Shown here one piece after another: positions 2 through 13,063 of a DNA stretch of 59,650 nucleotides (position 1 is the first letter of the stretch; the number at the start of each line of letters is the position of its first letter). Position numbers and translations under genes: made by a program. The notes beneath the pieces were generated by a model. It was not told the origin of the DNA, ran no database searches, and saw only the letters and a program-made list of their open reading frames with translations. The stretch is from Chloroflexota bacterium (lineage in GTDB: Bacteria > Chloroflexota > Dehalococcoidia > SM23-28-2 > RBG-16-64-32): assembly GCA_022561635.1 (NCBI GenBank), contig JADFQV010000004.1, positions 1 through 59,650 of the forward strand, read 5' to 3'.

Positions 2-244
2 TATGCGCTCAGCTTTTTCGTCTTCCTGCCGGAGGTCGGCTTCACCTTCGGCATGCTGTCGATCGCCGCGATGTTCTACTACACGGTGAGTGGCGTGCGG
101 GCCGCCGCCCCGGAGGCGAGCGCCGGTGCCGCCGTGCTGTCCGTCGGCGCAGGGTTCGTGCTCTGGATCACCGTGATGGCGCTGATATCAGACCCGGGCG
201 ACAACTTCTTCAACGGCCCCTTCGTCTACAGCATCGGCGACTAG
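2..244 (+). CDS. Membrane protein, C-terminal part (truncated by window edge)
   Basis: Frame is open from base 2 (YALSFFVFLPEVGFTFGMLSIAAMFYY...) with hydrophobic segments; stop at 242-244. Confidence 0.6.
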   Translation, partial: YALSFFVFLPEVGFTFGMLSIAAMFYYTVSGVRAAAPEASAGAAVLSVGAGFVLWITVMALISDPGDNFFNGPFVYSIGD

Positions 245-651
245 GCGGACGCGTCGTCGCCTGTCGGCACTTCGCTGATCTCGCCGTCCGTGATGCGGAA
301 CGCGCGCACCACCGGGTTTTCCTGGTCCTCCAGCGACACCAGCACGTAGTACGGGTCCGGCCAGTTGGTCGCCAGGCGCACGTCCGTCGGCGAAGGATAG
401 GCCTCGCTGCGCGTGTGTGAGTGGTAGACGGCCAGGAAGTCCCAGCCGTTGTCGTCGATGTCGTGCAGGAAACGCAACAGCTCGCGGTCGTCCACCCGGT
501 AGCGGAACTCGCTGTCCTCGGAGTTCGTCGCGCGAACGACCTTCACGGGCTTCCCGTCCACGCCGGCCAGCATCCCGCAGCACTCCTTGGGGAACTGCTC
601 GCGCGCGTGGGCGATCATCTGCTCCCGGACGTCGTCGGTGAGCGGCAGCAT
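241..651 (-). CDS. mec: JAMM/MPN+ metalloprotease, Mec-like (sulfur carrier-cysteine peptidase)
   Basis: ECCG Glu plus YHSHTRSEAYPSPTD (HxH-x7-S-xx-D JAMM motif); last gene of the cysM operon. Confidence 0.9.
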   Translation of the reverse strand: MLPLTDDVREQMIAHAREQFPKECCGMLAGVDGKPVKVVRATNSEDSEFRYRVDDRELLRFLHDIDDNGWDFLAVYHSHTRSEAYPSPTDVRLATNWPDPYYVLVSLEDQENPVVRAFRITDGEISEVPTGDDASA

Positions 652-1025
652 CAGTCGGCGACCGGGCCGACGTGGGTGGCGTCAATATACACACCTGACT
701 CCTGGTCGATGCCGAACACACCTCTGACCCGCACCTCGCGGCCGACGAGACCATCGAGTGAGTCCCGGCCCGCGTACTCTCGGATGATGACCGCGAAGTT
801 TCCGTTGCCGATCAGCTCGTAGCGGTCATGCTCTTCACTAAAGCCGAGCACGCCTACCGTCGTCACGGAATCGCCGTCGAAGTGGTTGGGGGCGCTGGTC
901 AGATCGTGCACCGAGACTTGCTGCACTGAGGCGACCGATTCGCCGCCGTGCTTGAGGAGAAAGGTCGCGGAGAGCACCAACGCGGCAAGCGCCGTGATCG
1001 CAGCGTACATCAGCGTGCGGCCCAT
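651..1025 (-). CDS. Membrane-anchored hypothetical protein, possible OB-fold
   Basis: MGRTLMYAAITALAALVLSATFLL N-terminal TM followed by a beta-rich domain (GDSVTTVGVL...GREVRVRGVF); ATG at 1025; stop overlaps mec start. Confidence 0.7.
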   Translation of the reverse strand: MGRTLMYAAITALAALVLSATFLLKHGGESVASVQQVSVHDLTSAPNHFDGDSVTTVGVLGFSEEHDRYELIGNGNFAVIIREYAGRDSLDGLVGREVRVRGVFGIDQESGVYIDATHVGPVAD

Positions 1026-1038
1026 CAGCGGCGCCCAC

Positions 1039-1977
1039 CTACCACCAGATCGTGCCCTGCGTCTCTTCGGGCGTCTCGTCGTAGTCCCGGCTCCAGAGCT
1101 CGGTCGAGAGGTACTTCCAGCCGCCGTCGGCCAGAAGCGCCACGACGTTGCCGCTTTCCAGCCGCTCAGCCGCACGCACGGCCACCTTGAGCACAGCGCC
1201 GGAGGAGATGCCGGCGAAGATCGCTTCTTTCTGCATCAGCTCTTTCGTCATGTGAAACGAGGACACTGAATCGACTACGATGCGGCCGTCCAGGACGGAC
1301 TCATCCAGCACCGGCGGGATGAACCCTTCCTCAAGCGCACGCAGCCCCTGCACCAGGTCGCCCGGGTGCGGCACGGCGGCGACGACTTTGACGTCGCTGA
1401 GGTTCTCCTTGAGGTAGCGCCCGACGCCGGTCAGGGTGCCACCCGTGCCGAGGCCGGCGACGAAAACGCTGACATCGGGCAAGTCGCGGAGGATTTCGGG
1501 GCCCGTCGTCTCATAGTGGGCGCGCGGGTTGTTCTCGTTACCATACTGGTACGGCATGAAGTAGCGGCCCGGCTCATCCTGAACCATCTGCTGCGCCTTG
1601 AATACGGCGTCGTTGGTGCTGGTCGCGTTCTCCGCATAGACGACATCAGCGCCGAAGGCACGGAGCAGCGCCTCGCGCTCGGGCGTCACGTTGTCCGGCA
1701 GGACGCAGAGGAGCGGATAGCCCTTGAGGCGGCAGACCATCGCCAGGCTGATGCCGGTGTTGCCGCTGGTCGGCTCGAGCACCGTCTGGCCCGGCTGCAG
1801 CTCACCGGCCTCTTCAGCGGCACGGATCATGAAGAGGGCGATGCGGTCCTTGACGCTGCCAGTCGGGTTATATCCTTCCAGCTTCACGTAGACGCCAACG
1901 CCCGGCTTTGGGCTGAAGTGGTTCAGCCGCACCAAAGGCGTGTTGCCGATGGCGTCAAGGATCGAGTCGTAAGCCAT
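1039..1977 (-). CDS. cysM: CysM-type (O-phosphoserine / carrier-thiocarboxylate) cysteine synthase
   Basis: PLP motif NPTGSVKDR, GLGTGGT, GLRALEEGF with Arg, ADGGWKYLST and aromatic C-terminus as in mycobacterial CysM; neighbours are a Ubl and a JAMM protease. Confidence 0.88.
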   Translation of the reverse strand: MAYDSILDAIGNTPLVRLNHFSPKPGVGVYVKLEGYNPTGSVKDRIALFMIRAAEEAGELQPGQTVLEPTSGNTGISLAMVCRLKGYPLLCVLPDNVTPEREALLRAFGADVVYAENATSTNDAVFKAQQMVQDEPGRYFMPYQYGNENNPRAHYETTGPEILRDLPDVSVFVAGLGTGGTLTGVGRYLKENLSDVKVVAAVPHPGDLVQGLRALEEGFIPPVLDESVLDGRIVVDSVSSFHMTKELMQKEAIFAGISSGAVLKVAVRAAERLESGNVVALLADGGWKYLSTELWSRDYDETPEETQGTIWW

Positions 1978-1994
1978 TTCGGTTCCCGCGCCGC

Positions 1995-2270
1995 CTACGA
2001 TCCGCCGGCGAGGGCAGGGAGGATCGAGACGACGTCGCCGTCCTTGAGCGCCGTGTCGAGCTGGTCCAGGAAGCGGATGTCTTCGTCGTTGAGGTAGACG
2101 TTCACGAAGCGGTGGATCTCGCCGTCCGTCATCACCATGTCGTGAAAGCCCGGAAAGCGCCCGTCGATGTCGGCCAGCAGGTCACGCACGTTATCGCCGT
2201 TGGCCTGGATGGAGCGCTCGCCGCCCAGGTGCTTCTGCATGTTCGCCGTCACGCGCACGTCGATCGCCAC
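1995..2270 (-). CDS. MoaD/ThiS-family sulfur carrier (CysO-like) ending GG-S
   Basis: GTG start overlaps upstream TAG (TAGTG); RFVNVYLNDEDIRFL...DVVSILPALAGGS. Confidence 0.9.
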   Translation of the reverse strand: MAIDVRVTANMQKHLGGERSIQANGDNVRDLLADIDGRFPGFHDMVMTDGEIHRFVNVYLNDEDIRFLDQLDTALKDGDVVSILPALAGGS

Positions 2271-3379
2271 TAGCTCTGCGCCCCGATCACGTGCTCGCCC
2301 GGGAATGGCGCGCCGCAGAAGCCCTCGTAGTCGATAAGCTCGGTCACAGTGGGGTTGTCGCCGCAAAGCGGGCACTGGGGGTCGCGACGCAGCTTAACGA
2401 CACGGAACTCCATGCCCAGCGCGTCGACGATCAGCAGTCGGCTGACGAGCGACTCGCCGATGCCGAGGATCTGCTTGATCGTCTCGATCGCCTGGATCGA
2501 CCCCATCACGCCCGTGAGCGCGCCGAGCACACCAGCCTCGGCGCAGCTCGGCACCATGCCGGGCGGCGGCGGCGCCGGGAAGAGGCAGCGGTAGCAGCCC
2601 TGGCCCGGCACGAAGACGGTGGCTTGACCGTCGAAGAGGAGGATGCTGCCGTCGACCAGCGTCTTGCCGGCGAAGTAGGCGGCATCGTTGACCAGGTAGC
2701 GCGTCGTGAAGTTGTCTGCGCCGTTCACGACGATGTCGTACTGGGGGATGATCTCCATCGCGTTGTCCGAAGTGATTGGCGTCTCGTGGAGGACGACGTT
2801 GACGTCCGGGTTGTAGGCGTTGAGGGTCTCCTTCGCCGACTCGGTCTTGCGCTTGCCCACATCGGCGGTCTGGTGCAGCACCTGCCGCTGCAGGTTCGAA
2901 AGGTCGACAGTGTCGAACTCGACGATGCCGATCGTACCGACGCCGGCAAGGGCGAGGTAGAGAGCCGCCGGTCCGCCGAGGCCGCCAGCGCCGATAATCA
3001 GTACCTTGGCCTCCAGTAACTTACGCTGGCCGGATGAGCCAACCTGCGGCATGATGATGTGCCGCGAGTAGCGCTCCACCTGATCCGGCGTCAGCGCGCC
3101 CACAGCTCCGCCGGCGATGGCCGGTATCACGGCCATCTCGTCGCCGTCTTTCACTGGTGTCTCCTTACCCTGGAGCGAATGTATCTCCGTGTTGTTGACG
3201 TAGATGTTGATGTGGCCGGGGATCTGGTCGTTTTCGTCGTAGATCATGTGCCGTAGCGACGGGAACTGCGCCCCCAGCTTGTCCAGCACCTCGCCCACCG
3301 TATCGCCGGCGGTCTTCACATGCGTCTGATTGCCGGCCAGCTTTCTGAACGGCGTTGGTATGTACACCGTGACCGGCAT
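2270..3379 (-). CDS. Ubl (MoaD-like)::MoeB/ThiF E1-like adenylyltransferase fusion, no rhodanese domain
   Basis: GGAGG RBS before ATG 3379; about 90-aa Ubl ending IPAIAGG-A, then RYSRHI, GAGGLG, SNLQRQ, CYRC, PSCAEAG, CPLC. Confidence 0.9.
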   Translation of the reverse strand: MPVTVYIPTPFRKLAGNQTHVKTAGDTVGEVLDKLGAQFPSLRHMIYDENDQIPGHINIYVNNTEIHSLQGKETPVKDGDEMAVIPAIAGGAVGALTPDQVERYSRHIIMPQVGSSGQRKLLEAKVLIIGAGGLGGPAALYLALAGVGTIGIVEFDTVDLSNLQRQVLHQTADVGKRKTESAKETLNAYNPDVNVVLHETPITSDNAMEIIPQYDIVVNGADNFTTRYLVNDAAYFAGKTLVDGSILLFDGQATVFVPGQGCYRCLFPAPPPPGMVPSCAEAGVLGALTGVMGSIQAIETIKQILGIGESLVSRLLIVDALGMEFRVVKLRRDPQCPLCGDNPTVTELIDYEGFCGAPFPGEHVIGAQS

Positions 3380-3419
3380 CTCATTCCTCCCTGTTACTTT
3401 TGACTTCCGCACCACCATC

Positions 3420-4334
3420 TCAGGCCTCCATCTGTAAGTATCGCTCACCGGTATCGCACAGCACAGTAACGACGCGCTTGCCCTCGCCCAGCCGCTTCGC
3501 CACCTGGATCGCCGCAACGACGTTGGCTCCGGACGAGATGCCGACGAGAAGCCCCTCTTCGGCGCAGAGACGGCGTGACATGTCGATCGCGTCCTGGTCG
3601 CTGATGGCGATGATATCGTTGTAGATTTCGCGGTTCAGGATGCCGGGCACGAAGCTGGCGCCGATGCCCTGGATCGCGTGGACGCCGGCGCGGCCGCCCT
3701 GCAGCACCGGCGAGCGCTCCGGCTCGACAGCGACGATGTTCAGCTCCGGCAGCTTCTGGCGCAGCACCTCGCCGACGCCCGTGATCGTGCCGCCGGTGCC
3801 AACGCCGGCGACGAAGGCGTCGATGCGGCCTTCCGTCGCCTCCAGGATCTCCACCGCGGTCGTCTGGCGGTGGATCTCTGGGTTGGCCGGATTCTCGAAC
3901 TGCTGGAGCATGATGTGTTCAGGCTGGCCGACCAGCTCTTGTGCGGCGTAGACGGCGCCGGTCATCCCCTCGATCGCCGGCGTCAGGACGACCTTCGCGC
4001 CGTAGCGGGCGAGGAGGTCGCGCCGGGCGAGGCTCATGTCCTCGGGCATCGTCACGATCAGCTTGTACCCCTTCACGGCGGCGACCATCGCCAGGCCGAT
4101 TCCGGTGTTGCCGCTGGTCGGCTCGACGATCGTATTGCCGGCCTTGAGGCGCCCATCGCGCTCGGCAGCTTCGATCATCGCCAGGGCGATGCGGTCCTTG
4201 ACGCTGCCGCCCGGGTTCAGAGACTCCATCTTGCCGACGACTTCGGCCGAGCCCTCGGGGACGACGCGGCCCAGCCGCACCATGGGCGTGCCGCCTATGA
4301 GGTCGAGAACGTTATCGGCGATCTTCTTGGCCAT
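3420..4334 (-). CDS. cysK: Cysteine synthase A (O-acetylserine sulfhydrylase)
   Basis: [45 protein letters not shown]. Confidence 0.93.
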
Positions 4335-4342
4335 CACAACTC

Positions 4343-4786
4343 CTAGATGATATAGCGGGTGGCGCCCGGCTGCGCCAGCCTGTCCCGCTCGGCGAGATCG
4401 GCGATCGTAGTACTCGATAGCACGCCGACGATGGCGTCGCGCACGGCAGCCCACATCTCGGACTGAGCACAGCCGCCGTTCTTCGCGCAGCCGCTTGTCT
4501 CGTCGAGGCAATCGACGGCCATTATCGGACCTTCCAGCGCCGCGATCACGTCGCTCACCTGTATCTGCGCCGGCGGCCGGGTCAGTGAGTGGCCGCCCTG
4601 GGGTCCGCGCACGCTGCGCACGAAACCGGCGCGGCGCAACGTCCCCAGCAGCTGCTCCAGATAAGACTCCGGAATGGCCTTCGCGGCAGCGATGTCGCCG
4701 CTCTGCGTCGGCTTGCCGTCGCCATAGCGGTGGGCAAGCTCTATCAGGGCGCGCAGTCCGTAGTCTCCCTTGGTTGAAATCTTCAT
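4343..4786 (-). CDS. Rrf2-family transcriptional regulator (CymR/IscR-like)
   Basis: [28 protein letters not shown]; three Cys (C-x6-C-x5-C); ends RYII. Confidence 0.92.
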
Positions 4787-4791
4787 AGTCT

Positions 4792-4816
4792 AAAGTCGAG
4801 TATCTCCATCAAGAAT
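4792..4816. promoter_or_regulatory. Putative Rrf2 operator (IscR type-1-like) overlapping the cys operon transcription start
   Basis: AAAGTCGAGTATCTCCATCAAGAAT; CTAAAGTCGAGTAT (4790-4803) recurs exactly at 9924-9937; minus-strand extended -10 TGtTACTAT at 4815-4823. Confidence 0.65.
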
Positions 4817-4822
4817 AGTAAC

Positions 4823-4839
4823 ATACCCCGGTGGGGTAT
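4823..4839. promoter_or_regulatory. Putative CsoR/CstR-family operator
   Basis: Perfect palindrome ATACCCC-GGT-GGGGTAT directly upstream of the -10 element. Confidence 0.65.
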
Positions 4840-4848
4840 AGCGACAGA

Positions 4849-5970
4849 TCATACCAGAAAGAGCACCAACGGCACGATGAAGATCGCCGCCATGAACGTG
4901 CCGAACGCGCGCCGGTCGTGCGTAATGTGGTTGGCGGCGTTGATGATCGCGGAGGAGTAGGGCTTGTAAAAAAACAGCAGCACCACGAGCGAGATCACCG
5001 CGCCCACCACCATCTGCGTGAAGACGATCGTGAAGGCTCGCGGCGAGTCTAGTAGCAGCGCGGCGACCATGGTGTCGACCCAGGTCGTGATGTTGGCGCC
5101 CATGATGTAGGGAATGATCGCGTTGCGGCGGATGTACCCCTTGAGTGAGAGCGGGATGAGAAGGGTCAAAGAGATCGAGACCGAGAGCGTGATCGCCGTG
5201 ATCGCCATGCCCAGGCCCAGCATCGGCAGCGGGCGGTGGAACCACTCCCGGGCGCGCTCCAGGCGGCCCGTCGAGCCACCCGACTCCAGGTTCGGCAGCG
5301 CACGATCAAACACGGCGAACGCCAGCAGCAGGACAGCGATGCCGATAACGAACAGCATCAGGTCCGGCACGGCGTCGGCGACACGATTGACCAGCGGCTC
5401 GTACGCCACCTCGACAAACGAGGTGACGGCGCCGGGCGTACCGACGCTGATATCGTCGAACCAACCGCTCTCCAGCACGAGGATGCCCAGAGGCAGGGCC
5501 GGCAGCCACAGCGTGAACGCCGTCAGCAGGGCCACGACGCCGATGTACAGGCCGTCGGCCGAGCGCTTATGCGTGACCCAGAGAACGAAGCCGACGAAGA
5601 GCACGATGAACGAGGCACCCAGCCGCGATCCGTTGATCATCGCGAACGCCTCGAGGTCAGATATCGTGCCGGAGGCGAAGAGGCTGAGCGAGATCGCCGC
5701 GACGGGCGAGCCGCTCATCACGATGTACGAGCCCAACCAGCCGAATCCCAGCAGGTTCAGCACCCCATCGGCCGAAAAGCGCGAGAGGACGGGCGAGAGA
5801 CCCACCGCGCCGGCCGTCAGTAGCTCCAGCGCGAAGATGAAGAGGAACAAGCCCGCCAGGCTGTAGGCGACGCGCAAGGCGGCGCCGGCGATGGCGCGCC
5901 AGCGGGGGTGTGGCACGGCCACGGGCAGCGACGCCGCGGGCAAGGCGGCCTCGCCCGGGTCAGATTGCAT
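4849..5970 (-). CDS. Na+/Pi-cotransporter-like (NptA/SLC34-related) membrane protein; candidate sulfur-oxyanion transporter
   Basis: Many TM segments and two repeat halves (SGSPVAA...NGSRLGAS; LSVSISL...YIMGANITT resembling GANIGT); overlaps the sat stop. Confidence 0.7.
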
Positions 5971-7147
5971 GCTTCGGCGTCGACCTCTCCTGCATCGCCT
6001 CGATCAGCACCCTGGCGACTTCGGGGCGGGAGAATTCGGGCGGCGGCGCGATGCCGCCGGCCAGCATCTCGCGCACCTGCGTGCCGGAAAGGAAGATCCG
6101 GTCCTCGGCCTGGTGCGGGCAGGTCTTGGTGCTGCCCATGCCCTCGCATTTCTTGCAGAAGAACGAGTGCTCGAACATCAGCGGCGTGATGCCCAGCGCC
6201 CCGGGATCGATCTCGCTGAAGATCAGCTGCGCGTCGAACGTGCCGTAGTACTTGCCGACGCCGGCGTGGTCGCGCCCGACGATGAAGTGCGTGCAGCCGA
6301 AGTTCTTGCGCACGAGCGCGTGGAAGACGGCCTCGCGCGGCCCAGCGTAGCGCATCGCGGCCGGGTTCACGGAGAGCACGACGCTGTTCGACGGATAGTA
6401 GTTCTCGATCAGGACCTCGTAGCAGCGCATGCGCACGTCGGCCGGGATGTCGCCCTCCTTCGTGTCGCCCACCAGCGGGTGCAGCAGGAGACCGTCCACG
6501 ATCTCCATGGCGGCCTTCTGGATGTACTCGTGTGCACGGTGGACCGGGTTACGCGTCTGAAAGCCGACGACGGTCTTCCAGTCGCGCTCGGCAAAAGCGG
6601 CGCGGGTCTGCGCCGGTGTCAGACGGTACTGCGGGAAGTCGTCGTAGTGTGGCCTCTCGATAACGCGCAGCGGGCCGCCCAGCAGCGTGTCGCCCTGCGC
6701 GTAGAGGGCGGCGACGCCGGGGTGGGCCTCGTCTTCGGTGCGGTAGACGCTGTTCGCCTCCGCCTTCTTGTCGTAGCCGAACTTCTCGCGGACTTCGAGG
6801 ACGCCGAGAATGTTCCCCGCCTTGTCCGTCAGCGCGACTTCCTCGCCCTCCTTGATCGCCGCCGCCACCTCATCGGAAACGGCGAGCGTGATCGGCATCG
6901 GCCACGGCAGGCCGCCGGCCAGGTGCATCTCGGCGACGACGGCGCGGTAGTCGTCCTGCGTCATGAAGCCATCGAGCGGACTGTAGCCGCCGGTGGTCAG
7001 CAGCTCGAGGTCCGAGAGGCTGCGGGAGTCGAGCTCCACGGTGGGCAGGCCTGCGGCGTGCTCGCGCAGGGATTTGGCTTCTTCGCCGGTAGCCAGCAGG
7101 TTTATCAGCCGCCCTCCGTGGGCGGGGATCGTCTCTCCCGTCGTCAT
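5960..7147 (-). CDS. sat: Sulfate adenylyltransferase
   Basis: [30 protein letters not shown]...CPH zinc site. Confidence 0.97.
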
Positions 7148-7234
7148 CGCTTCTCCATTCCGGTATGCGTTTGAAAGGACAGGGCCACGGTTGTGCGCCG
7201 TGGCCCTGTGGTGTCCGTTTCCGGGTCGGGCAGC

Positions 7235-7957
7235 CTAGTCGTGCAGGCCGCACTCCTTGAATTCGGGGTTCTCCCACCACCAGCGGCCGGCGCGGATGTC
7301 CTCGCCGTCCTTGATGGCGCGCGAGCACGGGGCACAACCGATGCTGGGGTAGTGCTGATCGTGAAGCTTGTTGTATGGAACCTCGTTCGCCTTGATGTAT
7401 GTCCAGACGTCATCAAGCGACCAGTCGATGATCGGATTCACCTTGACGATGCCGTTGCCTGCGTCCCACTCGACGGCGGGCGTGTCCGTGCGGGTCACAG
7501 CCTGGTCGCGGCGGAGGCCTGTCATCCACGCCTCGGCGTCGGCCAGGGCGCGCTTTAGCGGCTGCACCTTGCGGATGCCGCAGCACTCCTTGCGCAGCTC
7601 GACGCTATCGCGGAAAGAAAAGAAGCCCTTCTCGCGTGTCAGCGCCTCGACTTTGTCGCTGTCGGGGAACATGACCTCGATCGGGATGTCCTTGTGGCGA
7701 AGGCGTGTGTCCTCCATCACCTGGTACGTCTCGTCGTTGAGGCGGCCGGTGTCCAGCGTGAAGACGCGGATCTGCGGCTCCGCCTTGGCGATGATGTCCA
7801 TCAGGGCCACGTCTTCGGCGCCGAAGCTGTTGGCGAACTTGATGCCGCCGCCGAACGCCTCGCCTGCCCAGCGGACGATCTCCTCCGCAGACTTGCCAGC
7901 AAGCTGGCGGTTGAGGTCTTCGATGTCGGCCTCACTGTACTTGGTTGCTTCTTTCAC
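7235..7957 (-). CDS. cysH: APS reductase (CysH family, Fe-S type)
   Basis: LDTG, ECCGIRKV, SIGCAPC, RAGRW, ECGLH; the CC plus CxxC pattern marks [4Fe-4S] APS reductases. Confidence 0.93.
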   Translation of the reverse strand: MKEATKYSEADIEDLNRQLAGKSAEEIVRWAGEAFGGGIKFANSFGAEDVALMDIIAKAEPQIRVFTLDTGRLNDETYQVMEDTRLRHKDIPIEVMFPDSDKVEALTREKGFFSFRDSVELRKECCGIRKVQPLKRALADAEAWMTGLRRDQAVTRTDTPAVEWDAGNGIVKVNPIIDWSLDDVWTYIKANEVPYNKLHDQHYPSIGCAPCSRAIKDGEDIRAGRWWWENPEFKECGLHD

Positions 7958-8069
7958 TCTGGGTGCCCTCCCTGGCTAGGTCTGCTTGGTTGGTGGTCGC
8001 TCGATCAGGGACGCGTCTAGCGCTGCCCCTTCCGTATCGTGTCTGTCTCTAGCTAACTCATGTACCCGC

Positions 8070-9884
8070 CTAGACGGAGCATTCACCCTCGCCGCGGATG
8101 ACTTCGAACAGCTCTTCCTTGCCCCAGTCCATGTAGACGTCGATGTCCTCGTGGACCGGGCCCACTTCCTTGAACTCGTCGAAGAGCGAGTCAAACGTCT
8201 TCGCCCCGAGGCGGTCGACGAAGGCGACGAACTCCTCGCCCTCGTTTCGGTTGGCGACGTAGTGGTCGATCATCTTCTTGACGGCCTGCGGCGTGCGCTT
8301 GGACGGCACTCGCGCGACGCGTGTCGCGAACTTGCCGCCGCCGATGTAGTTGCCGCCGCCGAGGAAGATGTCGAAGCAGGGGATCGTAGCACCGTTGGCG
8401 CTGAACGACGATCCCTGGAGGCCGATCGCCGCGAGGTGGTGCTGGGAGCAGCCGTTGGGGCAGCCACTGGCCTTGACGTTGATCGCCTGCACCAGCGGGT
8501 CGTCCTGGTAGCCCCAGTCATTCAACGCCGCCTCGCGGATCGCCTCGCTGACACCGGTCGAGGAGGTGATGCCCATCTTGCAGGAGTCGGTTCCGGGGCA
8601 GCCGACGACATCCGAAAGCAGTCCGGCGTCCGGATCGCCGAAGCCGATCTTCTTGATCTCGGAGTGAAGCGCCGGTAGACCAGCTTCGTGAACCCATCGC
8701 AGCACCAGGTTCTGGTTCTGCTGCGTGCGCGCATTGCCACCGCTAAAGCGACGCATGATGTCGCCGACGGCGCGGAACTGCTCCGGCGAGAGGTTGCCGA
8801 GTGGGATCGTCAGTGTCACAGCGACGTAGCCGGGCTGTGGCTGCTGAACGACGTTCGTCTTTACCCAGCGCTCGAAGTCGGGGCCGGGTTGGACGCTGTT
8901 GGGCGCCGGGCCTGGCGTCGGGCCTTCGGGCGCGAGCTGCTTCAGCGCCGGCATGTCGAGCGGCTCCCAGGCCCACGGCTGTGCCAGCTCTTCGTCGACC
9001 TGGCGGCGGAACTCTTCGATGCCCAGCTTCTTGACGATGAACTTGACGCGGGCCTTGTTCATGTTCTTGCGCAGGAAGTTGGGTATGCCGCCTTCCTTGT
9101 CGAAGACCTTGAGCGCGGCCTCGGCGACGCGGATGTACTGGCCGTCGTCGGCGCGGGCGAACTCCCAGAGAGTCTCAGCTGCGCGCACCATCGTCGAGGT
9201 GCCGCCGCCGACGACGATCTTGAAACCGCGCACTTCCTCGCCGTTCTCCTCCCGAAGGGCGGCGACGAAGCCCATGTCATGGAACGGACTGCCGGCGCAG
9301 TCGATCGGGCCGCAGGAGAATGACGTCTTCCACTTGCGGGGCATGTTCTGGCAGATCGGATTACGGATCATGTTTCTGGCGTAGGCAGCCAGGTACGGCG
9401 TCACGTCGAACAGCTGGTGATCGGTGACGCCAGCATAGGGGCAGCCTGTCACGTTGCGCACGGTGTGCCCGCAGGCCTCCCGCGTCGAGAGTCCGGCTTC
9501 GGCGAGGATGCGCATGACCGTGCTGGCCTGGTCCAGCGGCACGAAGTGGAACTGGATGTTCTCACGAGTGGTGATGTGGCCGCGGCGCATGCCGGAGTGC
9601 TTCTCCGCCACTTCGGCGAGGGCGTCCATCTGCTCCGCGTTGACGCCGCCGTACGGCAGCTTGATGCGCATCATCTGCATGTTTTCCTGGCGCTGGCCGT
9701 AGGTGCCCATGCGCAGGCGGTAGGGGACAAAGTCGGACTCAAGGTCGGGGCTCTTCTGGTAGACCTTGGTCTCGGTGTCGAAGTTGTCGAACTCTTCTTC
9801 GAGCGTGACGAAGACGTGCCCGGCTTTAAGGTCTTTGGGCACCTTCGGATGCGCCTGGAACGTGTCTGGCTCTTGAACAGTCAT
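8070..9884 (-). CDS. sir: Siroheme/[4Fe-4S] sulfite reductase (ferredoxin type)
   Basis: GTYGQRQ, HITTRENIQ, MPRKWK, GCPGTDSC, SGCPNGCSQH; first gene of sir-cysH-sat. Confidence 0.9.
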   Translation of the reverse strand: MTVQEPDTFQAHPKVPKDLKAGHVFVTLEEEFDNFDTETKVYQKSPDLESDFVPYRLRMGTYGQRQENMQMMRIKLPYGGVNAEQMDALAEVAEKHSGMRRGHITTRENIQFHFVPLDQASTVMRILAEAGLSTREACGHTVRNVTGCPYAGVTDHQLFDVTPYLAAYARNMIRNPICQNMPRKWKTSFSCGPIDCAGSPFHDMGFVAALREENGEEVRGFKIVVGGGTSTMVRAAETLWEFARADDGQYIRVAEAALKVFDKEGGIPNFLRKNMNKARVKFIVKKLGIEEFRRQVDEELAQPWAWEPLDMPALKQLAPEGPTPGPAPNSVQPGPDFERWVKTNVVQQPQPGYVAVTLTIPLGNLSPEQFRAVGDIMRRFSGGNARTQQNQNLVLRWVHEAGLPALHSEIKKIGFGDPDAGLLSDVVGCPGTDSCKMGITSSTGVSEAIREAALNDWGYQDDPLVQAINVKASGCPNGCSQHHLAAIGLQGSSFSANGATIPCFDIFLGGGNYIGGGKFATRVARVPSKRTPQAVKKMIDHYVANRNEGEEFVAFVDRLGAKTFDSLFDEFKEVGPVHEDIDVYMDWGKEELFEVIRGEGECSV

Positions 9885-9925
9885 GGCCGTCTCCTTCCGG
9901 TCTGCGGACTCAAGCCTTTGCAGCT

Positions 9926-9950
9926 AAAGTCGAGTATTCCAGTCCGGTAA
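9926..9950. promoter_or_regulatory. Second putative Rrf2 operator, upstream of sir
   Basis: AAAGTCGAGTATTCCAGTCCGGTAA; imperfect dyad resembling IscR type-1 sites; shares 14 bp with 4790-4803. Confidence 0.65.
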
Positions 9951-10028
9951 GTCAAAATTGTATCTGTCGAAGCGCCTGCCTGTCAAACGCCAGAGCCGCT
10001 TCAGCCGCGGAAAATGCGCGTTCGGCCT

Positions 10029-10268
10029 CTATGGCGGGGCGCTGCCGCTGATCCGGTCTTGCAGATACTCGCCGAGGTCGTGCAGGAAGTCGATCGGGTC
10101 GTCGATGGCGTCTTCTGCGCCTTCGCGCAGTTCGACGGCGACGTTGAGGAGGGGCAACAGGGTGTCAGAGAAGTCGGGGAATCGCTCGGCGATGAGTTCC
10201 GGAGCTTCCCCGGCGCTGAGTAGCGCCAGGGCCTCTTCCAAAACGAGCGAAAGCGCCGGATCGTCCAA
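10029..10268 (-). CDS. Small acidic helical hypothetical protein
   Basis: GGGAGGG RBS before TTG; LEEALALLSAG...RFPDFSDTLLPLL. Confidence 0.6.
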   Translation of the reverse strand: MDDPALSLVLEEALALLSAGEAPELIAERFPDFSDTLLPLLNVAVELREGAEDAIDDPIDFLHDLGEYLQDRISGSAPP

Positions 10269-10436
10269 GTGTGAGCCCTCCCGTTTGCCGCAATGACGGG
10301 GTTTCTGGCCGGCGCCACCAATACATCACATTGGCATTGAGACGTCAATACCTGACGATAGGCTGCGCATTACGGGAGTGTTACGCCTTGAGACGATCCG
10401 ACGTCTGTGCGGCCCAGGTAAACGCCGGCGCTTGGT

Positions 10437-10772
10437 CTAGGCACCGCCGGCGACGGCGGGCACGATGCTCACCTCGTCACCGCCGGTGAGAGGCGTGGCG
10501 AGGCCGGCCTGAAAGCGGACGTCCTCACCGTTGATGTAGACGTTGACGAAGCGTCGCAGCTCGCCGCTCTCGTCGCAGAGGCGCTCCTTCATGCCAGGGT
10601 AGCGCGCCTCCAGGGCGTCGATGCACTCGGCCAGCGTCGATCCCTCGCCCGCGACGACGGACTCTTCGCCGGTCAGCTTGCGCAGCGGCATCGGTATGCG
10701 GACGGTGATGGTCAGACCGGCGCTCCCCGTCCCGCCGCCAGCCTCCTGCTCAGGCTCTCGTTGCATCGCCAT
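10437..10772 (-). CDS. MoaD/ThiS-family sulfur carrier ending GG-A
   Basis: VRIPMPLRKLT...RRFVNVYINGEDVRF...EVSIVPAVAGGA. Confidence 0.9.
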   Translation of the reverse strand: MAMQREPEQEAGGGTGSAGLTITVRIPMPLRKLTGEESVVAGEGSTLAECIDALEARYPGMKERLCDESGELRRFVNVYINGEDVRFQAGLATPLTGGDEVSIVPAVAGGA

Positions 10773-10778
10773 ATGTCA

Positions 10779-11021
10779 CTATCCCTCCACAACGTCTTCG
10801 TAGACCGGGTCGACGCGAACGCCCTGTTCCCTGACCCAGTCGAGGCTGCGTTCGATCTCATCCTGATCCCCGTCGAGCTCCAGAATCACCCACCCACGCT
10901 CGTCCGTGACGTCCGCGCGCCGGATGTTGGTGATGACCTTGAAGTCCTTGGCCAGCTTCCAGATGATGGGATCCTTAATCAATTGCTCAACGAAGGTGAA
11001 TTTGGTGCGTACCGTTGCCAT
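10779..11021 (-). CDS. Stand-alone NIL-domain protein
   Basis: ATG at 11021; DPIIWKLAKDFKVITNIRRADV...GWVILELDG...SLDWVREQGVRVDP. Confidence 0.85.
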   Translation of the reverse strand: MATVRTKFTFVEQLIKDPIIWKLAKDFKVITNIRRADVTDERGWVILELDGDQDEIERSLDWVREQGVRVDPVYEDVVEG

Positions 11022-11023
11022 CT

Positions 11024-12280
11024 CTATACCGCTTTCGTCAAGGGCAGCGCGCCCTCGCGTTCTTCGAGCGCCCGCTCGAACGATTCGATGTTGGCCTCTA
11101 CGGTCAGCGCCGGCTTCAGCGCCGGCGCCACGGCTTCCTGCGTCTTCAGACCGGCGCCGGTGATGAAGGCGACGACGACTTCGTCGGGCTCCACACGACC
11201 TTCCCGGACGAGACGGCGGAGGCCGGAGACCACGACACCGCCGGCAGTCTCGGCGAAGATGCCTTCGGTCTCGGCCAGGAGCTGGATGCCCTCGACGATC
11301 TCTTCGTCGGGGACTGCGACGGCCGACCCATTCGTGCTCCTCATCGTTTTTAGAGCGTAGTACCCATCGGCCGGATTGCCAATGGCCAGCGACTTGGCGA
11401 TCGTGTTCGGCTTCTGCGGCCGGATGTTCCACGAGTCGCGACCGTACGCCTCGGCGATCGGCGAGCAGCCGAGGGCCTGGGCGCCGCTCATGCGCGTCGG
11501 GTTCCAGTCGGTCAGACCGAGCCAGGCCAGCTCCTTGATGCCTTTGTATATCTTGGTCAAGAGCGAGCCGCTGGCCATCGGCACGATGCAGTGATCCGGC
11601 GCGCGCCAGCCCAGCTGCTCGCAGACCTCGTGGCCCAGCGTCTTGCTGCCCTCGGCGTAGTACGGCCGGATGTTGATGTTGACGAACGCCCACGGGTACT
11701 TGTCCCCCAGTTCGCTGCACAGGCGGTTGACGTCGTCGTAGCTGCCGTCGACGGCGACCAGCGTCGGCGCGTAGACCGCCGAGCCGATGATCTTGCCCCG
11801 CTCCAGGTCCGAGGGGATGAAGACGCGGGCCTGCATCCCGGCGCGGGCGGCGTGGGCGGCGACGCTGTTCGCCAGGTTGCCCGTCGAGGCGCAGGCCAGG
11901 GTATCGAACTCGAAATCGCGGGCGACGCTGCAGGCGACGGAGACGACGCGATCCTTGAACGACCACGTGGGGTTCACGCAGTCGTTCTTGAGGTAGAGGC
12001 GGCTCAGGCCCAGTTCGCGGCCCAGGTTCGGGGCGCGCAGGAGCGGCGTATAGCCGGTGCCGATGTCGACGGCGTCCTCGGCGTCGACGGGAAGAAGGTC
12101 GGCGTAACGCCACATCGTCGGCGGGCCGGCCTCGATGCGTTCACGGGTGACGTGGCCCGCGAGCGCTGCGTAGTCGTACACGACCTCCAGCGGGCCGAAG
12201 CAGAACTCGCAGACGTTCGAGGGCTCTAGTTGATATTCACGGCCGCATTCGCGGCATTTGAGTTTCTTGGCGACTGACAC
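11024..12280 (-). CDS. Threonine synthase-like PLP enzyme (candidate carrier-dependent homocysteine synthase)
   Basis: GGAGG RBS then GTG 12280; N-terminal CREC/CEFC zinc ribbon, NPTWSFKDR, ASTGN, RPYYAEGSKT, ITGAGLKT. Confidence 0.88.
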   Translation of the reverse strand: MSVAKKLKCRECGREYQLEPSNVCEFCFGPLEVVYDYAALAGHVTRERIEAGPPTMWRYADLLPVDAEDAVDIGTGYTPLLRAPNLGRELGLSRLYLKNDCVNPTWSFKDRVVSVACSVARDFEFDTLACASTGNLANSVAAHAARAGMQARVFIPSDLERGKIIGSAVYAPTLVAVDGSYDDVNRLCSELGDKYPWAFVNINIRPYYAEGSKTLGHEVCEQLGWRAPDHCIVPMASGSLLTKIYKGIKELAWLGLTDWNPTRMSGAQALGCSPIAEAYGRDSWNIRPQKPNTIAKSLAIGNPADGYYALKTMRSTNGSAVAVPDEEIVEGIQLLAETEGIFAETAGGVVVSGLRRLVREGRVEPDEVVVAFITGAGLKTQEAVAPALKPALTVEANIESFERALEEREGALPLTKAV

Positions 12281-12409
12281 GTGGTTCCTCCGGGACGACA
12301 ATCGATGTGGACGTTAGCGCAGGCCCGCGGGCCTCCCGAGCCGCCTGAGGCGGACGGAGGCCCGGGCCATCGCCATCTGTGCCCGGGTCCGCTGTTGTGT
12401 CGTCATACG

Positions 12410-12440
12410 AAAAAAGCCCCCGCGCAGAGCGTAAGGGGCC
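12410..12440 (-). terminator. Intrinsic terminator of the SAM riboswitch expression platform
   Basis: Minus strand: GCCCC...GGGGC stem followed by TTTTTT. Confidence 0.8.
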
Positions 12441-12448
12441 TGGAAAGC

Positions 12449-12550
12449 TCCTCATCGTTCTCCCGTTAGGGAGTCGGCATTGGCACCGTGTCTCGCGGGA
12501 CCGGTTGCCGGGCTTCACAGGGCCGTGCCCTCCACCGCTCTGGATAAGGT
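12449..12550 (-). ncRNA. SAM-I (S-box) riboswitch
   Basis: Minus strand CTTATCCAGAGCGGTGGAGGGCACGGCCCTGTGAAGCCCGGCAACC...GGTGCCAA...GATGAG matches the SAM-I consensus. Confidence 0.96.
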
Positions 12551-12569: not shown

Positions 12570-12599
12570 ATGCTAACACCGGCACGGAGCAAGCGTCAA
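12570..12599 (-). promoter_or_regulatory. Sigma70-type promoter of the riboswitch operon
   Basis: TTGACG, 18-bp spacer, TAGCAT with extended TG. Confidence 0.6.
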
Positions 12600-12718: not shown

Positions 12719-13063
12719 CTAGGCGGGGCTCGTCTGCCGGGTGCGCCGCTCGGGCGAGCGCGCGAACTTCTGGACCAGCTCGGCCATGACGGTGTCCAGC
12801 GTGATGCCACTGAGAGTCGGGTGCTTGAATGCGGCCTCGAGGTTCACAGTGTAATGATGGCGGCGGCCTTCGCGGCGGATCTCGAGCATGTCGGCGCGGC
12901 GCAGGTCTCCGATGAGGCCCCAGACTGTGCGCTGCGTGAGCGACATTTCATCGGCGATCTCCCGAATCGTGCAGTCGGGATTGACCGCGATGTAGAAGAG
13001 CACGGCGCCGTGGCTGGACACGACGTACCAGTGGTTCGCTATCGAGTTACCGTGAGTTCCCAT
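12719..13063 (-). CDS. Winged-helix (MarR/AsnC-like) DNA-binding protein
   Basis: SSHGAVLFYIAVNPDCTIREIADEMSLTQRTV...REGRRHHYTV. Confidence 0.8.
   Translation of the reverse strand: MGTHGNSIANHWYVVSSHGAVLFYIAVNPDCTIREIADEMSLTQRTVWGLIGDLRRADMLEIRREGRRHHYTVNLEAAFKHPTLSGITLDTVMAELVQKFARSPERRTRQTSPA

Follow-up and report, generated by a model that had tools for sequence, protein, structure and literature searches.

The DNA analyzed here, hereafter the window, is a stretch of 59,650 nt (positions 1 to 59,650 of contig JADFQV010000004.1, assembly GCA_022561635.1, Chloroflexota bacterium), and its positions 241-12550 hold a cluster that is very probably a Dehalococcoidia sulfur-assimilation supercluster, one in which carrier-protein routes to cysteine (Cys) and to homocysteine (Hcy) would be run with one JAMM protease and one E1 enzyme. 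The window lies on contig C28 of a metagenome-assembled genome (MAG) of 1.81 Mb that is 84% complete, its closest public relatives are MAGs labelled Dehalococcoidia or Chloroflexota, and every real gene in 241-12550 is on the minus strand. The initial annotation of this region had described three ThiS/MoaD domains, none with a free C-terminal Gly-Gly (GG), ending GG-S, GG-A and, in the domain fused to the E1, GG-A, and the DNA at the ends of both free carriers confirms this. Domain matches likewise bear out the one JAMM, the one rhodanese-less E1 and the full sat-cysH-sir set. Its description of two pyridoxal phosphate (PLP) enzymes, each beside its own carrier, needs correction: the cluster contains three such enzymes (CysM-like, 1039-1977; CysK, 3420-4337; ThrC-like, 11024-12280), and while the CysM-like gene does adjoin a carrier gene, a NIL-domain gene stands between the ThrC-like gene and the other carrier. 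Neither this NIL gene nor the SAM riboswitch at the head of its operon had been included in that description.

Features were called with Pfam, NCBIfam (equivalog/subfamily cut-offs), an Rfam covariance model and solved-structure relatives ranked by bit score. The features on which the argument turns are as follows, where Ubl stands for ubiquitin-like, SAM for S-adenosylmethionine and APS for adenosine 5'-phosphosulfate.

241..651, minus strand: JAMM/MPN+ metalloprotease, Mec-like, 136 aa (Pfam Prok-JAB, 78.1 bits)
1039..1977, minus strand: CysM-type cysteine synthase (PALP, 237 bits)
1995..2270, minus strand: CysO-like sulfur carrier, 91 aa, ending AGG-Ser (ThiS family PF02597, 56.8 bits)
2270..3106, minus strand: E1 adenylyltransferase domain, MoeB/ThiF type (ThiF, 271 bits; no rhodanese)
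3107..3379, minus strand: CysO-type Ubl domain, the N-terminal part of the E1 protein 2270-3379 (ThiS, 56.4 bits)
3420..4337, minus strand: CysK, O-acetylserine sulfhydrylase type (TIGR01139 cysK, 429 bits against a cut-off of 351)
4343..4786, minus strand: Rrf2-family regulator, CymR-like (Rrf2, 134 bits; 131.7 bits with the CymR model, which has a cut-off of 195)
5960..7147, minus strand: sulfate adenylyltransferase, sat (ATP-sulfurylase, 330 bits, plus PUA_2; PRK04149, 573 bits)
7235..7957, minus strand: APS/PAPS reductase CysH, APS type (PAPS_reduct, 158.6 bits; TIGR02055 APS_reductase, 251.7 bits against a cut-off of 235.3)
8070..9884, minus strand: sirohaem sulfite reductase, NirA/Sir family (NIR_SIR and NIR_SIR_ferr, two stretches each; all NCBIfam equivalog matches below cut-off)
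10437..10772, minus strand: MetO-like sulfur carrier, 111 aa, ending AGG-Ala (ThiS, 72.2 bits)
10779..11021, minus strand: stand-alone NIL-domain protein, 80 aa (PF09383, 55.2 bits)
11024..12280, minus strand: MetM-like protein, ThrC family, with an N-terminal Cys4 zinc ribbon (PALP, 233 bits)
12449..12550, minus strand: SAM-I riboswitch aptamer (RF00162, 76.6 bits against a gathering threshold of 44.4, E 2.9e-16, full model 1-108)

The homocysteine branch

Judged by sequence and gene context, the homocysteine branch is of the Streptomyces MetM/MetO type and not of the Wolinella HcyS/MetY type. MetM and MetO form a Streptomyces pathway that passes through O-phospho-L-homoserine (PMC12172450, PMC13759103 and a 2026 bioRxiv preprint, all citing Hasebe et al. 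2024), and a SAM riboswitch lies upstream of metM in S. albulus (PMC12172450). In the window, the SAM-I riboswitch is on the same strand as the MetM-like gene and 169 nt upstream of its start, a GTG at 12280 that is inferred from relatives; the only curated NCBIfam cut-off that the protein reaches is that of the threonine synthase model, TIGR00260. A search of five actinomycete genomes with this ThrC-like protein identified five loci with MetM homologues of 55-57% identity in four of them (two labelled Kitasatospora, one Streptomyces and one Saccharothrix), and only a 37% ThrC-type match in the fifth. All five of these Streptomycetaceae loci have a carrier gene directly after the MetM homologue, its product 48-54% identical to the MetO-like carrier of the window, and four of the five have a SAM riboswitch before it (75-79 bits). 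A maximum-likelihood tree of 32 ThrC-family rows, a set that does not include S. albulus MetM itself, placed 24 rows in a MetM clade (support 100/99) that contains 18 Chloroflexota proteins including that of the window, one from Myxococcota and the five Streptomycetaceae homologues, with the window genome's own ThrC (C2) and the second ThrC copies of the actinomycetes in a separate clade (98/98). The genome also encodes a third ThrC-family paralogue (G000:C37:52992-53972; TIGR00260, 172.7 bits), whose very long branch belongs to neither the ThrC clade nor the MetM clade.

For the family that includes MetB, MetC, MetY and MetZ (Cys_Met_Meta_PP, PF01053), the window genome returned only 8 partial matches of at most 29.4 bits, and five near-complete relatives returned only partial matches of 17-31 bits. 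Since no canonical homocysteine-forming enzyme was found in these genomes, a biosynthetic role for the carrier set is needed. ThrB (homoserine kinase) is present in the window genome (218.9 bits), and from this context, ThrB with no MetB/MetY-type enzyme found, and by analogy with Streptomyces, the MetM-like enzyme would use O-phosphohomoserine and MetO-thiocarboxylate. Elsewhere in the genome (G000:C56:1318-3305), two tandem MetE-type genes (Meth_synt_2) of about 320 aa each, a pair kept in relatives, look like short or split cobalamin-independent methionine synthases.

The MetO-like carrier has CysO (3DWG_C, 89 bits) as its best solved relative, and its end reads AVAGGA-stop (GGC GGT GCC TAG). 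It also has a 19-residue N-terminal extension (10716-10772, minus strand; MAMQREPEQE...) that is present in its two closest relatives; in other lineages, which do not have it, the Met start sits at what is a CTG Leu codon in the window.

Comparison with the two known systems shows how the branch is built. As in Streptomyces, a ThrC-like enzyme of the same clade is followed by a CysO-family carrier and preceded by a SAM riboswitch, a Mec-type protease and an E1 are common to it and the cysteine branch, and one residue follows the carrier GG; unlike in Streptomyces, a NIL gene lies between metM and metO, the tail is Ala and not Cys, and the operon is in the same supercluster as the cysteine branch and the E1. 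In Wolinella succinogenes, Krishnamoorthy and Begley reportedly described in 2011 an HcyS-Ala/HcyD/HcyF/MetY pathway, which resembles the window in the one-Ala mask after GG, a JAMM for both unmasking and product release, a rhodanese-less E1 and a nearby sulfite reductase, and differs from it in the acceptor enzyme, an O-acetylhomoserine sulfhydrylase there and a ThrC-family MetM-like protein here. The Wolinella-like branch that the initial annotation had envisaged therefore does not stand: the enzyme belongs to the MetM clade, the riboswitch is of the SAM type, and the genome search gave no real Cys_Met_Meta_PP enzyme.

The NIL-domain gene

The gene between those for the MetM-like enzyme and the MetO-like carrier comes after MetM in all 18 Chloroflexota loci that have MetM and in none of the six elsewhere (Myxococcota L083 and the five Streptomycetaceae loci). 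The C2 (NIL) domain of MetN binds methionine. Among solved structures, the only match to the profile of this protein is that domain (3DHX, E 5.8e-6). Its 525 close homologues are named just "NIL domain-containing protein" or are misnamed after MetN or the methanogen NIL-ferredoxin, and similar 80-aa NIL clusters occur in the Atlas in Chloroflexota and Actinomycetota. A NIL-ferredoxin protein is part of the methanogen route to homocysteine (PMC13759103). Our guess from these matches is that the NIL protein may be a methionine- or homocysteine-binding partner of MetM with a regulatory or substrate-handling role. Prediction of a MetM + MetO + NIL complex scored 0.00 in two runs, made without controls, and has no bearing on this guess.

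Alignment of the 18 NIL proteins (A2) also revealed an invariant C-terminal D-[VI]-V-E-G, with the stop codon right after the Gly in 16 and with ends of GG and GGA in the other two. We considered this end as a carrier-like tail and dropped the idea, as the NIL domain of MetN ends near the same point of the alignment.

The cysteine branch

The CysM-like protein has mycobacterial CysM as its best solved relative (3DKI/3DWG/3DWI, 296-299 bits over the full length), with the next cysteine synthase at 252 bits. Its R213 aligns with R220 of mycobacterial CysM (3DWI numbering), so that the Arg is kept, and this is the residue that Agren et al. (2008) reportedly linked to phosphoserine recognition; the C-terminal Trp tail is kept as well (IWW aligned with LW(A)). 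It is probably, on these sequence features, an O-phosphoserine sulfhydrylase using a carrier thiocarboxylate. The candidate carrier is encoded 17 nt upstream of cysM, by a gene whose GTG start shares bases with the E1 stop (TAGTG) and whose end reads ALAGGS-stop (GGC GGA TCG TAG). Its best solved relatives are 4N6E_B (83 bits) and CysO 3DWG_C (80 bits), and the same two CysO proteins, 3DWG_C and that of 4N6E, head the solved relatives of all three cluster Ubls (80/83 bits for this carrier, 56/53 for the fused Ubl and 89/80 for the MetO-like carrier), which are 28-39% identical to one another. The JAMM motif is complete (E23...H77-S-H79-x7-S87-x2-D90), and the best solved relatives of the protease are 2KKS, 2KCQ and P. 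furiosus JAMM1.

In the mycobacterial route, the E1 adenylates the carrier, a thiocarboxylate is formed, CysM adds it to O-phosphoserine, and Mec hydrolyses the resulting CysO-Cys (PMC3227635, citing Burns 2005, O'Leary 2008 and Agren 2008). The window resembles this CysO/CysM/Mec+/MoeZR system in its CysM orthologue, which has both the Arg for O-phosphoserine and the C-terminal tail, in the CysO-type gene directly upstream of cysM, in the JAMM within the operon and in having one E1 also for MoaD. It differs in that its carrier ends in GG-Ser and not GG, in that its E1 has no rhodanese, carries both CxxC motifs and bears its own N-terminal CysO-type Ubl, unlike MoeZR, and in that its genes form one cluster with sat-cysH-sir, CysK and Rrf2.

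An ordinary CysE/CysK route probably exists beside the carrier route, as in mycobacteria: CysE matched above cut-off in 5 of 5 relatives of 92-99% completeness. The Rrf2 gene adjoins CysK in nearly all related loci. A regulatory pairing of CymR with CysK is known from work in B. subtilis. The CymR regulon is mentioned in the 2026 bioRxiv preprint. We also considered CysK as the partner of the fused Ubl, from their adjacency and from a fusion-CysK-JAMM order in Bacillota, and set this aside as inseparable from a simpler Rrf2-CysK pair of the CymR/CysK type.

The ubiquitin-like domain fused to the E1

A Ubl domain makes up residues 1-91 of the E1 protein and ends at G90-G91, with AIAGG running through AVGALTPDQ into the ThiF domain by a linker of A-V-G-A, and its best solved relative is CysO 3DWG_C (55.6 bits). 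A full match to both Ubl and E1 is present in 38 of 40 same-order relatives, at 61-97% identity; the remaining two are a 71%-complete genome without a match and one (G037) that has only a split form. Every one of the 37 fusions (36 plus that of the window) has [ILMV]AGG at the Ubl end, and the linker after it varies from 1 to about 60 residues, unconserved, ahead of the E1 helix L(T/S)xxE..RYSRH. Split forms also occur. In L083 (Myxococcota), a stop follows AIAGG at the end of the Ubl, with the E1 reading on in that frame, and in two loci of the window's order, L132 and L133, the E1 directly adjoins a Ubl that ends in GG-RW-stop or GG-stop. The latter two loci (G035:C40 and G037:C1) run Rrf2, free Ubl, unfused E1, one gene, CysK-like gene, and no JAMM was seen near either.

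Outside Chloroflexota, the fusion has a C-terminal rhodanese, giving ThiS-ThiF-Rhodanese in 4 of 4 proteins tested; proteins of this form (L079:8601-11422, L081, L085, L084, L072, L078) come from MAGs labelled Neomarinimicrobiota, Deferribacteres, Zixibacteria and Bacillota. The fusion of these other phyla lies in compact CysM-JAMM-fusion operons (L079, L081, L085; a BolA-like gene follows in L079) or in fusion-CysK-JAMM groups (L072, L078, L080), and in 8 of 8 other-phyla loci where the fusion is near a JAMM and/or a CysM/CysK-type enzyme, the Ubl profile identified no other Ubl nearby. L064, which contains several frameshifted genes, was excluded from arguments from missing genes. A search of public databases with the Ubl part gave at least 531 clusters of the fusion, the best 120 of which all combine PF02597 with PF00899, under the names MoeB, adenylyltransferase/sulfurtransferase or "ubiquitin-like small modifier protein 1".

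Because the GG is invariant, because split forms end in it and because some loci have no other Ubl, the fused domain reads as a true carrier whose GG needs exposure, and most likely it is a real third CysO-family carrier that would be freed by the JAMM at the invariant GG. Such cleavage has precedent, as DRJAMM has been shown experimentally to cut the D. radiodurans MoaD-MoaE fusion to a C-terminal Gly (PMC8832034). In that fusion, and in the SAMP1 fusions acted on by HvJAMM1 (PMC8832034), a Ubl GG is similarly buried in a bond to a partner enzyme with a JAMM in the genome, the difference being that the partner in the window is the E1 itself and not a sulfur acceptor.

It is somewhat doubtful, and yet worth weighing, that the fused Ubl is never cut and is not a carrier, serving as a docking, dimerising or auto-inhibitory domain, with sulfur transfer left to the two free carriers. 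N-terminal Ub-like domains on ThiF-type E1 proteins that are usually beside a stand-alone ThiS were described by Iyer, Burroughs and Aravind (2006; PMC1779556), who inferred for them a role different from that of the stand-alone carrier. In the window, too, the gene directly between those for the E1 and CysM encodes a free CysO-like carrier, so that a third carrier is not strictly needed, and the linker of only 1-4 residues in several relatives leaves little room for a protease. A FastTree tree of the 91-aa sequences, computed without support values, put the three cluster carriers in separate groups, a hint that they may be old paralogues. Against an uncut domain, the diglycine is kept in every fusion with the residues after it free to vary, the split forms end at GG or two residues beyond, and the eight other-phyla loci have no second Ubl near the JAMM and the PLP enzyme. 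The domain of Iyer et al. was described as distinct from ThiS and as having a different, unassigned role, whereas that of the window is of CysO type, has an invariant GG and is JAMM-linked; one of their cases, in Pelobacter, lies beside cysteine synthase and O-acetylhomoserine sulfhydrylase (PMC1779556).

One E1 for six carriers

The E1 matches the MoeB subfamily model PRK05690 (289.9 against a cut-off of 266) and contains the GAGGLG, CYRC and CPLC motifs. In the window genome it is the only ThiF-family gene, set against six ThiS-family genes: the three of the cluster, a ThiS with a free Gly run (with thiG-thiE-thiO), a MoaD (with moaE) and an orphan ending AGG. The orphan (G000:C64:30411-30572; locus L006) ends PPLAGG-stop and is beside an alpha/beta hydrolase gene and two family-less open reading frames (ORFs). 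Five of five near-complete relatives, one of them a single contig, also have one ThiF match above cut-off, with 6-8 ThiS-family matches, and the earlier proposal of two carrier-dependent branches with one JAMM and one E1 is supported by relatives, by solved structures and by these counts. No second JAMM protease was found in the window genome, where the other JAB-family match is RadC-like.

Since it is the sole ThiF-family gene, the fused E1 must also serve thiamin and molybdopterin synthesis. MoeZR, which acts on CysO as well as on MoaD (PMC3227635), is a precedent. A Ubl docked for good is hard to reconcile with an E1 serving ThiS and MoaD, and the need for a single E1 to stay open for ThiS, MoaD, CysO and MetO, together with the known JAMM cleavage of linear Ubl fusions (PMC8832034), is a further point against the uncut domain. 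The fuller scheme, which we put forward tentatively, is that the Ubl::E1 protein may be a self-loaded pro-enzyme: the JAMM would free the docked third carrier, the E1 would charge six Ubls, protease and E1 together would control sulfur for cysteine, homocysteine, thiamin and molybdopterin, and the NIL protein would be a methionine- or homocysteine-sensing subunit of MetM.

The same gene counts bear on another explanation, namely that the PLP enzymes use free sulfide, that the carriers serve thiamin, molybdopterin and tRNA thiolation, and that the clustering reflects shared regulation. CysK is standard by its score, CysE is present in relatives, and the only E1 must serve ThiS and MoaD; however, a dedicated ThiS and a dedicated MoaD are encoded elsewhere in the genome, in their own thiG-thiE-thiO and moaE contexts, the cluster carriers group with CysO/MetO, and the pairing of carrier with PLP enzyme is kept across the phylum, which makes this explanation quite improbable.

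As to the sulfur donor, several stand-alone rhodanese genes are present elsewhere in the window genome, and either the persulfide of a stand-alone rhodanese or sulfide from the neighbouring Sir is possible.

Conservation of the cluster

A synteny search with the E1 returned 80 loci, in which a Chloroflexota order recurs: MetM-NIL-MetO-(sir-cysH-sat-transporter)-Rrf2-CysK-Ubl::E1-CysO-CysM-(small)-JAMM. In 8 loci with MetM or NIL plus sir, the genes for sulfate reduction stand between MetO and Rrf2; in 11 MetM-holding loci they are absent from that position. The link to sat-cysH-sir is thus a feature of the window's family and not of the carrier system. The idea that the carriers are charged by Sir-derived sulfide, as first proposed, had adjacency as its support, and in those 11 MetM loci sat-cysH-sir is outside the cluster. 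In the survey of tails and synteny that had been suggested, the gene order recurs across Chloroflexota, and the GG-X tails, described below, are not conserved.

A full-text search found nothing on the cluster in Chloroflexota, on a JAMM-released Ubl::E1 or on NIL in a metM operon, in a corpus without most subscription journals or any supplements; what it did return was the two-branch principle in Streptomyces and the general types of operon described in 2006. Table 2 of PMC13759103 lists MetO, Mec, MoeZ and MetM with experimental evidence, citing Hasebe 2024, so a branched network with Mec and E1 common to CysO and MetO is already known for Streptomyces and the principle is not new. The claim of a new combined architecture may accordingly survive for Chloroflexota, on which the literature search gave nothing, and fails for the shared Mec/E1 network, which is in print. 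What seems undescribed is the Ubl::E1 with an invariant junction GG, a sole ThiF-family E1 for six carriers, and a NIL gene conserved beside MetM.

Carrier tails

We compiled the C-termini of all closed carrier ORFs in related loci, leaving out one that was truncated by the edge of its contig. Of 30 carriers at the CysO position, 10 have a free GG and the remaining 20 have 1-14 extra residues, with tails of S, R, A, I, N, WR, AR, RR, AQ, DR, AGS, EGGH, AGNHRPA, SRPVGTEL and SARAPRRPRRAGKA. At the MetO position in Chloroflexota, the GG is free in 10 of 19, and the other 9 end in S, V, C, A, RL or SQAARTG. Tails vary even among genomes that are 90-97% identical in neighbouring genes, and the JAMM is present in every locus that extends far enough. 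The window tails are not sequencing slips, as identical or similar ones occur in the closest relatives: L041 and L043 also end GGS and the MetO-like carrier of L042 ends GGS. In the five Streptomycetaceae MetO homologues (L121-L124 and L126; labels Kitasatospora, Streptomyces tateyamensis and Saccharothrix), the end is AVAGG-Cys in four and AVAGG in one; one-residue masking is the rule in the actinomycete system too. In Table 2 of PMC13759103, Mec appears as an experimentally supported "[MetO]-L-cysteine hydrolase", an entry that fits removal of the Streptomycetaceae GG-Cys tail.

The JAMM would have to hydrolyse a Gly-Gly-Cys or Gly-Gly-Hcy bond in each cycle, so extra residues after GG would cost little and could drift in and out. 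A GG-Ser or GG-Ala tail would present the same type of bond as the GG-Cys or GG-Hcy product, and the JAMM would trim such tails as a by-product. On the simplest reading of these sequences, the masks are tolerated tails and not a designed gate. The MoaD of the window genome (G000:C2:68484-68786; locus L003:1486-1746, plus strand), whose gene overlaps moaE by 11 nt, ends PPVSGG-SRAL; without a free GG, it would be a fourth carrier that needs trimming.

The gatekeeper role first assigned to the JAMM, in which it would mature the carriers and so control them, is therefore retained in part: trimming is supported, and the gate is weakened by tails of 0-14 residues that are unconserved though the JAMM is kept. 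That the GG-X masks are a designed gate, with JAMM activity timing the flow of sulfur into cysteine and homocysteine, has in its favour the lack of a free GG on all three carriers of the cluster, the GG-SRAL end of MoaD and the finding of just one JAMM in the genome. We nevertheless regard it as unlikely, given that 10 of 30 CysO-like and 10 of 19 MetO-like relatives with the same JAMM have a free GG, that the other tails vary in length and sequence where a conserved gate should show a stable tail, and that a SAM riboswitch and Rrf2 already regulate.

Transcription units and other features

Six further features complete the cluster and its edges.

651..1025, minus strand: small protein for which a single N-terminal membrane helix is predicted (no match in Pfam or NCBIfam)
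4849..5970, minus strand: Na/Pi-cotransporter-family membrane protein (Na_Pi_cotrans, 26 bits, weak and below cut-off; Atlas clusters of the family score 0.98)
9957..9986, minus strand: promoter-like site ahead of sir (TTGACA-18-TACAAT, 11/12 matches; consensus match only)
12416..12430, minus strand: terminator-like hairpin and T run, a probable riboswitch expression platform (consensus match only, in a count no higher than in shuffles)
12570..12599, minus strand: promoter-like site ahead of the riboswitch (TTGACG-18-TAGCAT, 9/12 matches, TG extension; consensus match only)
12719-13063, minus strand: gene for a MarR/winged-helix regulator immediately upstream of the operon with the riboswitch; lgt and resB come next, all apparently unrelated to the cluster

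The gap between the MetO-like gene and sir is 552 nt long and holds the good promoter-like site at 9986-9957, and this arrangement suggests at least two transcription units, one from sir to the JAMM gene (unit 1) and one of riboswitch-metM-NIL-metO (unit 2). The membrane protein gene shares 11 nt with sat and stays in synteny with it in relatives; its product may be a sulfate importer of a family seldom named for that role. The stop of the small ORF overlaps the JAMM start, and relatives retain this ORF, at 37-83% identity, in its place between CysM and JAMM.

Proposed mechanism and its alternatives

From gene content, orthology, conservation and intact motifs, we infer a scheme whose chemical steps, substrates, cleavage of tails and fusion, and sulfur donor would be as follows. 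Unit 1 would reduce sulfate to sulfide, and cysteine would be made both by the CysE/CysK route and by a carrier route of the mycobacterial type. In the latter, the E1 would adenylate the CysO-type carrier at its C-terminal Gly, sulfide or the persulfide of a stand-alone rhodanese would convert the carrier adenylate to a thiocarboxylate, CysM would join this to the aminoacrylate derived from O-phosphoserine, and, after an S-to-N shift, the JAMM would hydrolyse the carrier-GG-Cys amide. Unit 2 would make homocysteine likewise from O-phosphohomoserine, as Streptomyces MetM/MetO do, and SAM would turn the unit off.

Several observations weigh against this scheme. The CysM-like protein scores 343.5 bits, just below the cysKM subfamily cut-off of 344.15 and far below the cysM equivalog cut-off; CysE was not detected in the window genome, at 84% completeness; and the JAMM reaches 85 bits with the NCBIfam desampylase model, below its cut-off. 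The E1 has no rhodanese domain of the MoeZR type, and it has both CxxC motifs, which is the pattern of MoeB rather than of MoeZ (PMC3227635). For the Ubl part, the separate role given to fused domains by Iyer et al. and the separate grouping of the three carriers, both set out above, point the same way.

In another explanation, the Ubl/E1/JAMM set acts mainly in protein conjugation of the SAMP type and its location reflects regulation of sulfur enzymes. NCBIfam SAMP1 is the best named match for two carriers (51-70 bits, with the cut-off of 60 reached by the MetO-like carrier and the fused Ubl), the SAMP-activating E1 UbaA, at 328 bits, falls below cut-off as desampylase does, and in Haloferax SAMP1/HvJAMM1 reversibly regulate MoaE (PMC4443979). 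Each free carrier, however, is in an operon with a PLP enzyme whose orthologues use carrier thiocarboxylates, the homocysteine operon is under a SAM riboswitch in genomes where no canonical homocysteine-forming enzyme was found, and CysO is the closest solved relative of all three Ubls, so that conjugation as the main function appears very improbable.

Biological significance

Dehalococcoidia and their relatives within Chloroflexota are abundant, have for the most part not been cultured, and often receive an incomplete score for amino-acid biosynthesis. The cluster would explain homocysteine synthesis without an enzyme of the MetB/MetY type, and would extend the MetM/MetO pathway, described in 2024, from Streptomyces to a second phylum. 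The MetM-like enzyme is likely to be annotated as threonine synthase and the fusion is named MoeB or small modifier, and both names hide the pathway. The cluster raises the questions of whether a JAMM releases a carrier fused to its E1, how one rhodanese-less E1 may serve all thiocarboxylate carriers of a cell, and what a free NIL domain may do in a homocysteine operon.

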